Shown here: piece by piece, positions 52,965-58,675 of the stretch | Layout of the letters: each line of letters begins with the position of its first letter | How positions within the stretch are numbered: the stretch's first letter is position 1 | Assembly: GCF_044324785.1 (NCBI RefSeq) | Contig: NZ_CP172127.1 | Direction: 5' to 3' (one strand) | DNA from: Escherichia coli | GTDB taxonomy: Bacteria > Pseudomonadota > Gammaproteobacteria > Enterobacterales > Enterobacteriaceae | Length of the DNA: 64,000 bases | Program-made: the position numbers and the translations under genes | Notes under the pieces: model-generated | What the model saw: only the letters and a program-made list of their open reading frames with translations | The model's database searches: none | What the model was told of the DNA's origin: nothing

Positions 52965-53975
52965 ATGAGCATCAAAAATTTACTTCCCGGCAAAATTGGC
53001 TTAGGTGGCGCACCACTCGGCAACATGTTCCGTGCCATTCCGGAAGACGAGGCCCACGCCACCGTGAGCGAAGCCTGGAACCTGGGCGTGCGTTACTTTG
53101 ATACCGCGCCGCTGTACGGCTCTGGCCTTTCTGAAATCCGCATGGGTGAAGCGCTGTCTCAGTATCCACGCGATGAATACGTTCTGAGCAGCAAAGTCGG
53201 TCGCATCATGCTGGACGAAATGGAAGATCCGGCAAAACGTGATTTCGGTGAAAAAGGTGGCCTGTTCGAACACGGCCTGAAAAACAAAATTCTGAATGAC
53301 TACTCTGCTGACGCCACGCTGCGCTCGATTGAAGACAGCCTGAAACGCCTGAAAACAGACCGTCTGGATATTGTCTGGATCCATGACCCGGCGCAGGACT
53401 TCTACGGTGACAGCTGGCTGGAACAGTTCAACATTGCCCGTACCGGTGCGTTTCGTGCGCTGACGCGTTTGCGTGACGAAGGTGTGATTAAAGCCTGGGG
53501 ACTGGGTGTGAATCGCGTCGAACCTTGCGAACTGACGCTGGCGCTGGACGAACCGAAGCCGGATGCGTTCCTGCTGGCGGGGCGTTATTCCCTGCTGGAT
53601 CACGAACGTGCGCTGCAACGCCTGATGCCAGAAGCACTGGAACAGAACGTGGATATTGTTGTGGGCGGTCCGTACAGCTCTGGCGTACTGGCAGGCGGCG
53701 AGCACTTTGAATATCAGAAAGCTTCTGCGGCCATCCAGCAGAAAGTGGCGCAAATTAACACCATTGCCACACGTTTCAATGTGAACGTTAAAGCAGCTGC
53801 GCTGCAGTTCGCACTGGCAAACCCGGCCGTTGCGGCGGTTATTCCTGGCTCCAGCCGTCCTGGCCGTATGGCAGAAGATCTGGCTGCACTGAATGCGCCT
53901 GTTCCGGCTGAATTCTGGGCAGAAATGCGCCGTCAAAATCTGGTTGCGGAAAACGCTCCGCTGCCGACCCGTTAA
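52965..53975 (+). CDS. Aldo/keto reductase family oxidoreductase
   Basis: 336 aa, MSIKNLLPGKIGLGGAPLGNMF...YFDTAPLYGSG; AKR fold motifs. Confidence 0.85.
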   Translation: MSIKNLLPGKIGLGGAPLGNMFRAIPEDEAHATVSEAWNLGVRYFDTAPLYGSGLSEIRMGEALSQYPRDEYVLSSKVGRIMLDEMEDPAKRDFGEKGGLFEHGLKNKILNDYSADATLRSIEDSLKRLKTDRLDIVWIHDPAQDFYGDSWLEQFNIARTGAFRALTRLRDEGVIKAWGLGVNRVEPCELTLALDEPKPDAFLLAGRYSLLDHERALQRLMPEALEQNVDIVVGGPYSSGVLAGGEHFEYQKASAAIQQKVAQINTIATRFNVNVKAAALQFALANPAVAAVIPGSSRPGRMAEDLAALNAPVPAEFWAEMRRQNLVAENAPLPTR

Positions 53976-53994
53976 TCAACCTGGTGAGAAAACG

Positions 53995-54792
53995 ATGAAA
54001 CTGGATCTGACAGGTAAAGTCGCGGTAGTCAGCGGCTCAACCTCCGGCATTGGGCAGGGTATCGCCGCCGGACTGGCAAAAGCAGGCGCAACGGTGGTTG
54101 TCGTCGGCCGTAAACAGCGCGGCGTTGATGACGCCATGGCTGCGATTGCGGCACAAACTCCCACGGCGTCACTGCGTGGCGTGGTGGCCGACCTCAGCAC
54201 CGAAGACGGCGTGGCTGCGCTGATCGCTGCAGTCCCAACGGCTGATGTGCTGGTCAATAATCTGGGCATTTTTAACGATAAAGATTTCTTTAGCGTTCCG
54301 GATGATGAGTGGATGCACTTCTATAACGTCAACGTCCTCTCCGGCGTTCGTCTGGCGCGTCACTATGCGCCAGGCATGACGGAACAGGGCTGGGGGCGGA
54401 TTATCTTTGTCTCGTCCGAATCCGGCGTGGCAATCCCTGGCGACATGATCAACTACGGCGTCACCAAAGCCGCGAATCTGGCGGTTTCTCATGGTCTGGC
54501 GAAACGACTGGCGGGGACCGGTGTGACCGTCAACGCCATTCTGCCAGGGCCAACCTTTACCGATGGCCTGAAAGAGATGCTGGCGGATGCCGCTGCACAA
54601 TCGGGACGCAGTGCGCGTGAACAGGCCGATGAGTTTGTTAAAACCTCGCGTCCGAGCTCCATCATCCAGCGTGCGGCGGATGTGGAAGAAGTGGCGAATC
54701 TGGCGGTTTATCTCGCGTCACCGCTTTCCTCGGCAACCACAGGGGCAGCCCTGCGCGTCGATGGTGGCGTCGTCGACACCCTGACTATGTAA
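53995..54792 (+). CDS. Short-chain dehydrogenase/reductase (SDR)
   Basis: ORF 53893..54792; start MKLDLTGKVAVVSGSTSGIGQGIA (TGxxxGxG Rossmann motif) preceded by GGTGAG; 265 aa. Confidence 0.85.
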   Translation: MKLDLTGKVAVVSGSTSGIGQGIAAGLAKAGATVVVVGRKQRGVDDAMAAIAAQTPTASLRGVVADLSTEDGVAALIAAVPTADVLVNNLGIFNDKDFFSVPDDEWMHFYNVNVLSGVRLARHYAPGMTEQGWGRIIFVSSESGVAIPGDMINYGVTKAANLAVSHGLAKRLAGTGVTVNAILPGPTFTDGLKEMLADAAAQSGRSAREQADEFVKTSRPSSIIQRAADVEEVANLAVYLASPLSSATTGAALRVDGGVVDTLTM

Positions 54793-54817
54793 CCCTATAA
54801 ATTAAGAGAAAATTATC

Positions 54818-55234
54818 ATGGCTAAAACAACTGTATCGATCGAAATTCCGGCTTCTGCCGACGCCGTATGGCAATTGATGGGCGGCTTTGATGCGCTGCC
54901 AGACTGGCTGCCGTTCATCCCGAAAAGCGTGGTGACAGAAGGCGGTCGCGTTCGTTCGCTGACAACCTCTGACGGCGGCACTGTGGTTGAACGTCTGGAA
55001 GCGTTTGATAACCGTCAACGCAGTTATACCTATTCCATTATTCAAGCACCGTTCCCAGTGGTGGATTACCTCTCCACCATTACCGTTCATGAAACCGCCG
55101 ACAGCCAGGTTTCCCGTGTGGAATGGTTCGGTGAATTCACCCCGGTGAATGTGACGAACGAAGAGGCCGAAGCGCTGTTTACCGGCATCTATCGGGATGG
55201 TCTCAAGGCGCTGAAGGACAACTTTGTTGCCTGA
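54818..55234 (+). CDS. SRPBCC-superfamily (polyketide cyclase / Bet v1-like) protein
   Basis: 138 aa; family assignment from overall sequence character, moderate certainty. Confidence 0.6.
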   Translation: MAKTTVSIEIPASADAVWQLMGGFDALPDWLPFIPKSVVTEGGRVRSLTTSDGGTVVERLEAFDNRQRSYTYSIIQAPFPVVDYLSTITVHETADSQVSRVEWFGEFTPVNVTNEEAEALFTGIYRDGLKALKDNFVA

Positions 55235-55391
55235 TGCAATCGACAGGCGTCGGAACGTCCGGCGTCTGATTATTAACAAAAGCAGAATAGTCTATTGTCA
55301 TTTGTATCATTTATGTTATCAGGCAGCAGGCGTATTCTCTTCCCATCGCGTTAATAAACGCCAAACAATTAAGACACTCTGGAATATAAAC

Positions 55392-55604
55392 ATGAAAACG
55401 ATCATCGCAATTTTTACGGCTTCTCTTTTCTCTGTCGCGGCGTTTAACGCATCGGCGCAAAGCGTGACAGCAACCGGTACAACACTGGATTCTGCGGAAG
55501 CAGTTATTGCGCAGAAAGCGAAAGAGATGAACGCCTCTGAATACAAAATCACCAGCGCTCGCATGGGCAATACCGTCACCATGAGTGCCGAACTGTACAA
55601 ATAA
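55392..55604 (+). CDS. DUF1471 (YdgH/BhsA/McbA-like) small secreted stress protein
   Basis: 70-aa frame MKTIIAIFTASLFSVAAFNASAQSV...ASEYKITSARMGNTVTMSAELYK; signal peptide and family-typical C-terminus. Confidence 0.7.
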   Translation: MKTIIAIFTASLFSVAAFNASAQSVTATGTTLDSAEAVIAQKAKEMNASEYKITSARMGNTVTMSAELYK

Positions 55605-55628
55605 CCGCGCAAGGGACCCATTACGTAA

Positions 55629-55838
55629 TTTGCTAAATATGCGCTGAATGCGTTGCCATTAAAAAACCGTATTGTAATGCCACCGATGACACGTTCCCGT
55701 GCGGGTGACGTTGCGACTGACATGATGGCGGACTATTACGCGCAGCGCGCTAGTGCAGGACTTATCATCAGCGAAGGTACGCAAATCAGCAGAAGCGCTG
55801 CGCATAATTTTCCACGGCCCGCTGATTTACTCCGGTAA
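55629..55838 (+). pseudogene. Remnant of an Old-Yellow-Enzyme (NemA-like) NADH:flavin oxidoreductase gene
   Basis: Frame encodes PLKNRIVMPPMTRSR...MMADYYAQRASAGLIISEGTQIS, resembling an OYE N-terminus, then loses similarity and stops; no in-frame ATG. Confidence 0.55.
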
Positions 55839-55916: not shown

Positions 55917-56677
55917 AGCACCGAATATCAGAAACGTAACGAAACCAACGAACTGTTTATTCCACCTGGACCGTGTCTGGGCGACAAAGTGCTGGAAGTC
56001 AGCAACCTGCGTAAATCCTATGGCGATCGTCTGCTGATTGACTCCCTGAGCTTCTCGATCCCGAAAGGAGCGATCGTCGGGATCATCGGTCCGAACGGTA
56101 CGGGCAAATCGACGTTGTTCCGTATGATCTCTGGTCAGGAACAGCCGGACAGCGGCACCATCACTCTGGGTGAAACGGTGAAACTGGCATCGGTTGATCA
56201 GTTCCGTGACTCAATGGATAACCGCAAAGCCGTTTGGGAAGAAGTTTCCGGCGGGCTGGATATCATGAAGATCGGCAACACCGAGATGCCAAGCCGCGCC
56301 TACGTTGGCCGCTTTAACTTTAAGGTAAACGCGTTGGTGAACTTTCCGGTGGTGAGCGCGGTCGTCTGCATCTGGCGAAGCTGCTGCAGGTTGGCGGCAA
56401 CATGCTGCTGCTCGACGAACCAACTAACGACCTGAATATCGAAACCCTGCGCGCGCTGGAAAACGCCCTACTGGAGTTCCCGGGCTGTGCGATGGTTATC
56501 TCGCACGACCGTTGGTTCCTCGACCGTATCGCCACGCACATCCTGGACTACCAGGATGAAGGTAAAGTTGAGTTCTTCGAAGGTAACTTTACCGAGTACG
56601 AAGAGTACAAAAAACGCACGCTGGGCGCAGACGCGCTGGAGCCGAAGCGTATCAAGTACAAGCGTATTGCGAAGTAA
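55917..56677 (+). pseudogene. Truncated, frameshifted second copy of the ettA 3' half
   Basis: Matches ettA from about 51015 onward with scattered substitutions and a 13-bp deletion near 56320 that breaks the frame; no 5' half. Confidence 0.85.
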
Positions 56678-56776
56678 TGCGTAAAATGCCGGGTGCGGCG
56701 CGCCAGCATCGCATCCGGTATTAGTTAAATGATTAATGGGAGGCAAGTTCCCGGAAAAAGGCAGGATTTTCTTTAA
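55917..56776. repeat. Direct repeat copy B (ettA' + REP + 3' end of intact antitoxin gene)
   Basis: Counterpart of 51015..51876. Confidence 0.8.
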
Positions 56777-57017
56777 TTGTGGCAAGTACTTTTGCAGCCA
56801 ATCCCGTAGGATTTCTTCGCTTCGATTCCCAGCTTTTAATGGTATCCACACTGGTTCCCAGAGCTTTTGCCATCTCACTTTGAGAAACGTTGAGTTGCTC
56901 ACGAATAGCTTTAACATCCGCAATTTCGTAGCGGGTCACCCGTGCAGGTTCTTTTAAACCTTGTTTAATCTCGACAGCCTCTTCCAGAGAGGTTTTCAAC
57001 TCATCAAAAAAACTCAT
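56733..57017 (-). CDS. HTH (XRE-like) antitoxin of a type II toxin-antitoxin pair
   Basis: 94 aa; C-terminal helix-turn-helix (LNVSQSEMAKALGTSVDTIKSWE); start 1 bp after the toxin stop. Confidence 0.7.
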   Translation of the reverse strand: MSFFDELKTSLEEAVEIKQGLKEPARVTRYEIADVKAIREQLNVSQSEMAKALGTSVDTIKSWESKRRNPTGLAAKVLATIKENPAFFRELASH

Positions 57018-57018
57018 T

Positions 57019-57351
57019 TTATACCTCGCCTTTGAGCAGTTTCGTCAACTTCTTTAGTTGAGCTTTTTCCGTATCTGTCAGACTATCTTTGGCATTTTTC
57101 GGATAGGCCATAATCAAATAAATAATCTCTTCCGTCGCCAGAAAGTAAATTATTCTGACACTGCCACTTTTTCCCTGTGAACCCGCAGCCATTCGGACTT
57201 TACGCAATCCACCAGTCTGCTGAATGAGATCACCTTTATCGGGAGTTCCGATGAGTTCTTTTTGTAATTCCTTTAATTCATCATCGGTTGCAATCTGCTT
57301 GATCTGACGCGTAAACATTGGCGTCTCTATAAATATTATCGCCTTGCCCAT
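57019..57351 (-). CDS. RelE/ParE-superfamily (HigB-like) toxin, putative
   Basis: ORF 57019..57429; likely start MGKAIIFIETPMF preceded by GGGAGG (about 110 aa); toxin-first gene order. Confidence 0.6.
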   Translation of the reverse strand: MGKAIIFIETPMFTRQIKQIATDDELKELQKELIGTPDKGDLIQQTGGLRKVRMAAGSQGKSGSVRIIYFLATEEIIYLIMAYPKNAKDSLTDTEKAQLKKLTKLLKGEV

Positions 57352-57366
57352 CCCCCCTCCCTGGCA

Positions 57367-57399
57367 GGTACATTGTACACCGAAATGGAGTACTAAGTA
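57367..57399. promoter_or_regulatory. Paired GTAC-containing palindromes upstream of the toxin gene (candidate operator)
   Basis: GTACATTGTAC and GTACTAAGTAC about 20 bp apart, 16-48 bp upstream of the proposed toxin start. Confidence 0.3.
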
Positions 57400-57442
57400 C
57401 ACTTTTGAATTAGTAATCCCACTCAACATCTTATAAAGATGA

Positions 57443-58675
57443 TTATCCCTGCTCCCCCATCATCTCCCGCACCAGCTCCACACAGCGCAGGAAACGGCTG
57501 TCGTAATCGTCCTCTTCAACCCGCACAAATTCGATATTGTTCTCTTCCAGCATCTCTACCAGCAAGTTCTGGAACTCTTTGCGATCCACCGAACTACCGA
57601 GGCTGCGTAAACCATCCGCCACCCACGGGGTGTTGTTCTCCAGCAAGATAACCAGATCAAAACGGTATTCATCGATCAGCGCCTGCACGAACGGATGCTC
57701 CCGCCCTTCGTACTTTTTGCAGAACGCCTGGGTAGTGACAAAATCAGTGTCGATAAACGCCACTTTATTGGCATATTTCACTGCAAAATCAATGTATTGA
57801 GCGTGTCCCAGCGCGATTTTATCGTAGTCGGAATACTGCAATGCGATCTCATCACCGCCAAGGTGTGAAAAGACATAATCGCGACCATATTCCCATGCAC
57901 TGGTAGTGTTGAAGATATTAGCAAGTTTGTTTACCAGGGTGGATTTACCGCTCGACTCGCCGCCAAGGATCGCCACGGTACGCACAAAGAACGGCTTCAC
58001 TTCGGTGGGAATATATTCCCAGTAGCGGAACGGGTTTTCGCGGATCTGCGCACCGCTGATACTCATAAAGGTACGCTTCGGATCGACCAGCACCGTCTCG
58101 ATCCCCAGATGTTCCATATACTGTGGCGCATCGGCTTCTTCCGAGGTGTAGATCAGGTCCGGCTGGATCCCCTTTTCAGCCATAAACTTTTTGATGCCGT
58201 TGCTCCACACATCCCAGCCGTGCGGATATGGCTCCATGCCCTCTTCGTTGAAAGCATGAATACGGATATTTTTCTGATATTTAAAGGTTTGCAATAACCA
58301 GCGCAGACGATCCGGCACGGTGGGCTGCTGCGACATGGCGCTGTCTTCAAACAACGCGCGGTCGCGGGTATCGTCAAAACCCATAATGATATGCAGCTCG
58401 TCAACCTGGCTACAGGCGCGCTGGATAAGGTAGATATGTCCGGTATGTAGCGGGTAGAACTTACCGAATACGACACCAATGGTTTTCTTCTGTCGGGGAA
58501 ATTCAAGCCCCAAAAAACGGTGCAACGCCTCCAGTTTTTGCGCGCTGGGGCTTTTAATTTTGGCATTCAGTAACTGGCTTAAATACCCTTTGGTCATACC
58601 GCTGGCATCAGCTACCTGCTGTAGCGTGCAGCCCTGTTGCTTGATGGCAGTTTTCAGGTAATCAAATGACGACAT
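57443..58675 (-). CDS. nadR: Trifunctional NAD biosynthesis/regulator protein NadR
   Basis: ORF 57443..58696; NadR from MSSFDYLKTAIKQQGCTLQQVADASGMTKGYLSQLL (410 aa). Confidence 0.95.
   Translation of the reverse strand: MSSFDYLKTAIKQQGCTLQQVADASGMTKGYLSQLLNAKIKSPSAQKLEALHRFLGLEFPRQKKTIGVVFGKFYPLHTGHIYLIQRACSQVDELHIIMGFDDTRDRALFEDSAMSQQPTVPDRLRWLLQTFKYQKNIRIHAFNEEGMEPYPHGWDVWSNGIKKFMAEKGIQPDLIYTSEEADAPQYMEHLGIETVLVDPKRTFMSISGAQIRENPFRYWEYIPTEVKPFFVRTVAILGGESSGKSTLVNKLANIFNTTSAWEYGRDYVFSHLGGDEIALQYSDYDKIALGHAQYIDFAVKYANKVAFIDTDFVTTQAFCKKYEGREHPFVQALIDEYRFDLVILLENNTPWVADGLRSLGSSVDRKEFQNLLVEMLEENNIEFVRVEEDDYDSRFLRCVELVREMMGEQG

Follow-up and report, generated by a model that had tools for sequence, protein, structure and literature searches.

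Two GTAC palindromes ahead of an Escherichia coli toxin–nadS operon as predicted operators of the antitoxin NadS

The toxin–nadS operon and its upstream gap

The stretch of DNA analysed here (the window, 64,000 nt) comes from the E. coli chromosome and carries serB, radA and nadR on the minus strand, convergent with ettA. On the same strand as nadR lies a gene at 57019–57351 (minus strand) encoding a protein of 110 amino acids, which is a predicted HigB2-like mRNA interferase of the RelE/ParE fold as judged by Pfam, by homology to PDB structures and by WP_000513551.1. It matched PF06296 with 40.2 bits (cut-off 27, E 4.6e-10) and the V. cholerae HigB-2 PDB structures with 7.6e-17 over residues 6–102. 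Its start agrees with the RefSeq annotation of identical loci and is preceded by a Shine-Dalgarno sequence, GGAGG, at 57356–57360 (minus strand). The antitoxin gene nadS (56733–57017, minus strand; 94 amino acids, XRE helix-turn-helix, HTH) begins 1 nt beyond the toxin stop on the same strand, so that the order is toxin first. Its product matched NCBIfam NF041265, 'NadS family protein', with 182.6 bits against a cut-off of 60 and over positions 1–94 of 94, and has its toxin-binding helix at the N-terminus, joined by a linker to the XRE HTH at the C-terminus.

The single NadS sequence aligned with V. cholerae HigA-2 over the HTH only (2.2e-6), whereas a family profile of 28 members aligned NadS residues 3–93 with HigA2 residues 6–103 (PDB 5j9i, 8e-9), a stretch that includes the N-terminal toxin-binding segment. 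An AF2 model of NadS (pLDDT 73) showed a helix at residues 3–18, a linker and a five-helix HTH, and HigA2 entries ranked first, weakly (E 5e-3), in a fold search with this model; given the medium confidence of the model and the weak E-values, these results served as corroboration only. Judged by toxin homology, antitoxin homology and the toxin-first order, the gene pair is a HigB2/HigA2-type type II module. Membership of the MqsA family was considered and rejected, since NadS scored 38 bits against TIGR03830 (cut-off 61.8) and 20.5 against PF15731 (cut-off 30), and both models aligned only its C-terminal HTH (1.2e-9 and 5.6e-4, respectively).

RefSeq names the same pair 'RelE/ParE family toxin' and 'nadS' and has it in 673 of 5426 complete E. 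coli genomes. The pair has also been catalogued bioinformatically as parE-3/yiaG-2 (TA30) in the nadR-ettA gap of the adherent-invasive strain (AIEC) NRG857c and of CFT073 (PMC7232551). A literature search for the NadS antitoxin or a toxin-antitoxin system at nadR returned only this catalogue entry and a mention of the PGAP name in K-12 (PMC12350097). The 11-mers described below, searched for in their exact form, led only to unrelated primer and viral-sequence papers.

nadR (57443–58675, minus strand) is co-directional with the toxin–nadS operon and forms its upstream boundary. A consensus scan of 56600–57800 found no terminator-like site between nadR and the operon, and read-through from nadR could therefore add transcripts that the operators would not control at initiation. 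On the other side of the operon, ettA is truncated and frameshifted (55989–56677, plus strand), with approximately its last 235 codons left as two ORFs (55989–56435 and 56402–56677). Its 5' part is replaced by a block (53893–55838) encoding SDR, SRPBCC and DUF1471 proteins together with a nemA-like fragment. The same arrangement occurs in strain 06-00048, whose annotation treats it as a pseudogene; in most E. coli the ettA at this position is intact.

The gap between the nadR stop (57443–57445, minus strand) and the toxin ATG (57349–57351, minus strand) is 91 bp long. It had been predicted to hold two short GTAC palindromes, and both are present exactly, although the coordinates given for them were one base low: on the plus strand, GTACATTGTAC lies at 57368–57378 and GTACTAAGTAC at 57390–57400, 16 and 38 nt 5' of the toxin ATG. 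Their placement between toxin start and nadR stop was thus correct. Each is a perfect 5+1+5 palindrome, and the two were also recovered by a repeat search as a 13-nt direct repeat, GTACNNNGTACAC, 22 nt apart from start to start. The pattern that they share (GTACNNNGTAC, GTAC-N3-GTAC) has these two matches and no others in the 64 kb window. The mean over 100 dinucleotide-preserving shuffles of the window was 0.29 matches, and one shuffle in the 100 reached two. Read on the minus strand and extended to 17 bp (see below), the proximal predicted operator site is GGTGTAC-AAT-GTACCTG at 57365–57381 (core GTACAATGTAC, 57368–57378), and the distal one is AGTGTAC-TTA-GTACTCC at 57387–57403 (core GTACTTAGTAC, 57390–57400), with 22 bp from centre to centre.

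Two further repeats were seen in the gap. A third perfect palindrome, CATCTT-tat-AAGATG (6-3-6), at 57427–57441, 1 nt past the nadR stop, is kept in all toxin-antitoxin-positive E. coli alleles examined, has no T-run after it and falls outside the family motif; it may represent the junction of the module with the chromosome. In addition, a 10-nt inverted repeat with 90% complementarity (GGAGTACTAA / TTAGTAATCC, 57410–57419 and 57387–57396) pairs the downstream half of the distal site with sequence 13 nt upstream of that site, and may be either a degenerate third half-site or a chance match.

In E. coli, the gap fell into seven allele classes that differ at 8–9 positions. The proximal core is invariant in all seven. 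The distal core is mutated to GTACTTAGCAC in one allele (strain 2017.09.02CC, at the equivalent of 57392), in which the proximal core is intact. The base between the two sites varies among C, T and A. In strain Z1323HEC0355, an insertion element encoding an integrase core domain protein (463–1563 of locus L088) separates nadR from the module. It stops 5 nt before the distal site, and neither the two operator sites nor the operon are disrupted.

Recurrence of the motif and its linkage to nadS

The comparative set was obtained by scanning one genome per species, which gave 80 NadS loci with 69–98% protein identity (81 with the window) from Enterobacterales, Alteromonadales, Halomonadaceae, Marinomonas, Methylococcales and others. 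Of the 81 loci (window counted), 72 had GTAC-N3-GTAC no more than 520 bp upstream of nadS. The upstream zones (42 kb) contained 86 sites and the other 358 kb of the same loci 5, placing the motif roughly 150-fold above the background of these loci; the loci share descent and horizontal transfer, and such counts are therefore not fully independent. The 100 nt upstream of the sites fell into 37 clusters lacking detectable mutual similarity, the E. coli context being unique. Alignment on the motif gave the consensus a-g-G-T-GTAC-t-a-t-GTAC-n-C-c, a 17-bp palindrome (rGTGTAC-N3-GTACnCy) with 7-bp half-sites whose centres lie 10 bp apart, and the information content is about zero outside this 17-mer. 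Both E. coli sites match the extended consensus. Two short palindromes do occur in the window as predicted, but the predicted functional unit is the 17-bp sequence and not just the 11-bp core.

In intact operons the last site ends 16–42 nt ahead of the start codon. Most loci contain a single exact site, and the position of the E. coli proximal site, which fits the family consensus, is that of the single site in most homologous loci. A pair of exact sites, spaced 19, 21 or 22 bp, is present in thirteen loci (counting the window), and in several further loci the second site is degenerate. The paired layout, described in the original prediction as usual for HTH antitoxins, is hence real but represents a subset, because most family members carry one site.

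These data bear on the question of whether the two palindromes arose by chance in an AT-rich intergenic region. At 11 bp they are short, and, as mentioned, one of the 100 window shuffles did give two matches. However, both lie within 33 bp in the one gap that precedes an HTH-antitoxin operon, and it is mainly the motif's presence at an equivalent position in 72 of the 81 homologous loci that refutes a chance origin, which we regard as practically excluded.

The position of the motif was also informative where the module has been rearranged. In eight loci from Enterobacter, Lelliottia, Trabulsiella and related bacteria, the GTAC site is found 25–26 nt before the nadS ATG and downstream of the toxin, within 65 inserted nucleotides that follow the toxin gene body, and a different sequence precedes the toxin. 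Five loci with internal toxin deletions (L004, L012, L078, L065 and L056) keep the site together with nadS. Of the nine loci that have no site, five (L003, L007, L009, L019 and L062) carry a deletion of the 5' part of the module, as in K-12, and the other four (L005 and L079–L081) have no toxin sequence left. By its position in these loci, the motif belongs to nadS and not to the toxin.

In one of the rearranged loci (L047; 2000–2015 and 2464–2474), a LexA-box-like sequence of the form CTGT-N8-ACAG, e.g. CTGTATATAAATACAG, was seen about 95 nt upstream of the toxin and the GTAC site between the toxin body and nadS, and the same layout was present in L044, L045, L051, L057, L060 and L063. It suggests a variant, of the Enterobacter/Lelliottia/Trabulsiella type, in which the toxin would be SOS-controlled and the antitoxin separately autoregulated.

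In K-12 MG1655, the 307-bp nadR-ettA gap (L002 2049–2355, corresponding to NC_000913.3 4628548–4628854) is a decayed copy of the module. Approximately the last 8 toxin codons (KLLKGEV*) and the first 37 nadS codons or so remain, the latter fused to REP-like sequence in a 55-aa ORF that PGAP calls nadS; the promoter, the two palindromes and the HTH have been lost by deletion. This ORF has been reported as expressed by PIRT-seq (PMC12350097), presumably owing to read-through from nadR.

NadS relatives are common outside the chromosome as well: 713 plasmid records hold one, and proteins of 81–84% identity occur on 5–12 kb plasmids of E. coli, Klebsiella and Pectobacterium (H42–H46). The protein is 85–91% conserved in Hafnia, Leclercia and Kosakonia, and this high conservation across genera is probably due to recent horizontal spread.

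The adjacency of nadR, which ends 42 bp upstream in E. coli, and the family name NadS could be taken to mean that the sites bind a host factor, e.g. NadR or another chromosomal regulator, instead of NadS. The motif, however, moves with nadS into nadR-free contexts in several bacterial orders, among them small plasmids, large virulence plasmids and phage-like contigs, which makes a factor of the NadR type unlikely. Moreover, the operator of NadR is TGTTTA-N8-TAAACA, which is unlike GTAC-N3-GTAC. Recognition by a host factor is thus highly improbable.

Promoter hexamers and recognition helices

The predicted operators were expected to overlap the promoter of the operon. A putative −10 hexamer, TACAAT (57372–57377, minus strand; 5/6 to TATAAT), falls inside the proximal site. 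It is one of only two TAnnnT hexamers on the minus strand of the gap and the only one in its proximal two-thirds; the other, TAAGAT, adjoins the nadR stop and has no −35. Upstream of TACAAT, at a spacing of 18 bp, a −35-like hexamer, TGTACT (57396–57401, minus strand; 3/6 to TTGACA), lies inside the distal site. A strict sigma-70 consensus scan of 56600–57800 gave no match in the gap at threshold, and the promoter assignment therefore relies on a weaker, hand-checked match. We infer that TGTACT / 18 bp / TACAAT is the only plausible promoter in the gap, and the start of transcription follows from it as part of the same model.

This assignment is also relevant to whether the palindromes might act as RNA hairpins, in the leader or in nadR read-through transcripts, and thereby affect stability or translation. 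The gap would indeed be transcribed if nadR reads through. Yet the 103-nt gap folds at −22 kcal/mol compared with a shuffle mean of −23.1 kcal/mol (z = 0.37), the GUAC-N3-GUAC stem has only 4–5 pairs with a loop of 1–3 nt, and transcription from a −10 at TACAAT would begin downstream of the distal site and of most of the proximal one. A role as RNA structures thus appears extremely improbable.

The embedding of promoter hexamers in the sites extends to the family. In 43 of the 72 loci with a site, the best promoter-like −10 is a TACnnT inside a site, and in other two-site loci (L004, L008, L025 and L028) the best pair is TGTACA-N17-TACnAT, with both hexamers contributed by the sites. The centre triplet is asymmetric between strands (TAT in 38 sites against ATA in 6), and its third base is T in 66 of the 86 sites; such asymmetry is needed in a −10 hexamer but not in a protein site that is purely symmetric. 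In L077, L094, L098 and L103, by contrast, the promoter is a separate, near-consensus −35/−10 pair with the site in its spacer. In every promoter layout seen in the family, a bound dimer would block RNA polymerase.

The invariant DNA core is matched by the recognition helix, whose region G54-T-S-x-D-T-I-K-S-W-E-x-x-R-R-N-P-T-G-L-A-A-K-V-L shows little or no variation across the 81 loci. Distant relatives provided a covariation sample of about a dozen points. Relatives at 36–45% identity with the helix xSWE..RR keep GTAC-N3-GTAC, usually as two sites about 29–30 bp apart, as seen for L092 (GTACggaGTAC and GTACtgcGTAC), a K. pneumoniae virulence plasmid (L099; TTAGTACcacGTACTAA and TAGTACgtgGTACTA), Y. 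ruckeri pYR4 (L100; TTCGTACtcaGTACGAA twice) and Pantoea (L102). The relative with R67L (L098) has a CTAC-N3-GTAG site, TCCTACactGTAGGA, in the spacer of TTGATA-N17-TATAAT, and that with alanine before the tryptophan (xAWE, L103) a TTAC-N3-GTAA site, TCTTACacaGTAAGA, in the spacer of TTGCAT-N17-TATAAT. Where asparagine precedes the tryptophan (xNWE, as in RTLENWEQGR of V. cholerae HigA2), the sites are N5-spaced and resemble GTACGC-N5-GCGTAC, with TATACGCcattgACGTACT and AGTACGCcattgACGTATA in Acinetobacter (L096, L097 and L105) and TATACGTcattgACATATA in an alphaproteobacterial locus (L106). A scan of viral contigs with the NadS profile yielded seven loci, which serve as examples and are too few for statistics. 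A phage XRE regulator (L094) combines a NadS-type helix, IPLDVVKSWESGRR, with the lack of both a toxin-binding N-terminus and a toxin, and has AGTGTACagtGTACACT (AGTGTAC-AGT-GTACACT) in the spacer of TTGACA-N17-TATAAT before its own gene. Across this small sample the direction is consistent with the site following the HTH. The sequence of the sites, their non-random occurrence, their conservation, their linkage to nadS and their covariation with the recognition helix are what the analysis shows.

With both promoters and helices in view, one may ask whether the GTAC sequences are promoter hexamers only (TGTACA as −35-like, TACnAT as −10-like), kept because a mobile module has to bring a promoter with it, and not bound by any repressor. 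The frequent location of the best −10 inside a site and the strand asymmetry of the centre triplet, unneeded by a pure palindromic operator, are what would be expected in that case. However, what is conserved is a palindrome, made up of the two GTACs with their symmetric G...C flanks and extending to bases that belong to no hexamer, and in L094, L098, L103 and L077 the palindrome lies between hexamers that are separate from it. Furthermore, the palindrome changes with the recognition helix of the HTH, and the homologue HigA2 binds such a site (PMC11006873). We therefore consider a promoter-only role very unlikely and retain NadS as the predicted ligand.

A broader reading would combine an operator code for NadS and HigA2, palindromes that are themselves the promoter, and the SOS-inducible-toxin variant as a derived form; taken jointly, we hold these three only tentatively, somewhat below an even chance. 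In such a code, core base and spacing would depend on Arg67 and on the residue (S, N or A) in front of the invariant tryptophan: S would specify GTAC-N3-GTAC, N GTACGC-N5-GCGTAC and A TTAC-N3-GTAA, while R67L would give CTAC-N3-GTAG. The palindromes would supply TGTACA as −35 and TACnAT as −10, spaced 21–22 bp, and in the derived variant, with the two genes apparently uncoupled, a LexA box would precede the toxin and a separate GTAC site would precede nadS, resulting in SOS-inducible expression of the toxin. If true, the 0.7-kb module would carry a self-repressing promoter into any context.

Predicted autorepression by NadS and related systems

Judging from these sequence comparisons, the two palindromes are very probably the cores of two 17-bp operators that are bound by NadS and through which the toxin–nadS operon is autorepressed. 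The autoregulatory operator proposed in the original prediction is thus supported by the identity of the genes, the conservation over 37 contexts, the linkage to nadS, the covariation with the helix and the precedent of HigA2. We infer physical binding, stoichiometry and repression as further parts of this model, as follows. One NadS dimer would bind each site, with each recognition helix (G54-TSVDTIKSWESKRR-N69) reading one rGTGTAC half-site and the half-site centres 10 bp apart; GGTGTACTATGTACACC is a candidate operator DNA for the dimer. With TGTACT of the distal site as −35 and TACAAT of the proximal site as −10 across the 18-bp spacer, occlusion of both promoter hexamers by NadS dimers would be the most likely mechanism. 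Since the two sites face the same side of the DNA at a distance of two helical turns, their occupancy would exclude RNA polymerase and autorepress toxin–nadS. By analogy with HigBA2, free NadS and the toxin-NadS complex would both bind. The distal site may be auxiliary or dispensable, given that a single site is usual in the family and that the distal core is mutated in one E. coli allele.

The closest known system is HigBA2 of V. cholerae, which is likewise a toxin-first operon with a homologous toxin and an antitoxin homologous over its full length. Its structures include the HigB2-HigA2 tetramer on operator DNA (PDB 8a0x) and the entries 5j9i, 5jaa and 8a0w. The footprint of HigA2 is a single 24-bp region containing TGTACGC-N5-GCGTACA, located just after the −35 and over the −10; base contacts are made by R68, E71, N72 and R77, and the KD is 25 nM (PMC11006873). 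HigA2 represses in vivo, for which its disordered N-terminus is needed (PMC11006873). In both systems the operator is a GTAC-armed inverted repeat of about 17–19 bp that, for NadS by prediction, lies over the −10 and binds one antitoxin dimer. In contrast to the single 7-5-7 operator (N5) of HigA2, the NadS sites are 7-3-7 (N3), and E. coli has two of them. HigA2 R68, E71 and N72 correspond to D58, K61 and S62 of NadS, the fourth aligned residue being R67; three of the four base-contacting residues thus differ, which fits a different site in NadS. The linker segment responsible for fuzzy DNA contacts in HigA2 is also shorter by seven residues in NadS. Given the single N5 operator and these residue differences, the HigA2 mechanism is transferred to NadS by family resemblance and not by identity.

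Two further systems share parts of the layout. E. coli MqsR/MqsA is also toxin-first, with a weakly related HTH and two short palindromes that have a 3-bp centre: MqsA binds 5'-AACCT-N3-AGGTT, present in two copies in its own promoter (PMC4894380). However, the MqsA palindromes have another half-site and are about 32 bp apart (22 bp for the NadS pair), the N-terminal zinc-binding, toxin-binding domain of MqsA has no counterpart in NadS, and MqsA also regulates other promoters, a role that is not on record for NadS. In P. vulgaris HigB-HigA, HigA binds two operators, O1 and O2, which overlap the −35 and −10 (PMC12266136). This arrangement, i.e. two inverted-repeat operators over −35 and −10 with one HTH dimer each, is the one proposed here for E. 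coli. P. vulgaris HigA nevertheless comes from another HTH antitoxin lineage and binds its toxin in another mode (fold rank 33 or lower, E >1), and its operator sequences are unrelated to the NadS sites. The experimentally autorepressed HigBA2Ab of A. baumannii (PMC5906591) was considered as a possible counterpart of the Acinetobacter loci annotated as NadS, but the genes measure 357 and 303 bp compared with 321 and 273 bp, and on account of this size difference HigBA2Ab was left out as evidence.

Type II toxin-antitoxin operons are as a rule controlled through autorepression by their antitoxin, and the proposed mechanism is in this respect unsurprising. What is new, as derived from the sequence comparison, is the operator consensus of the NadS family, its embedding in promoter hexamers and the covariation of helix and site. 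NadS-type modules are very widespread, being found in E. coli genomes, on plasmids and in many genera at 70–90% protein identity. The 17-bp consensus is a ready design for EMSA and reporter work, and it offers a prediction of cross-talk between chromosomal and plasmid copies with the same helix and site. Finally, the natural variants of helix and site could show how an HTH dimer shifts its half-site spacing from N3 to N5.
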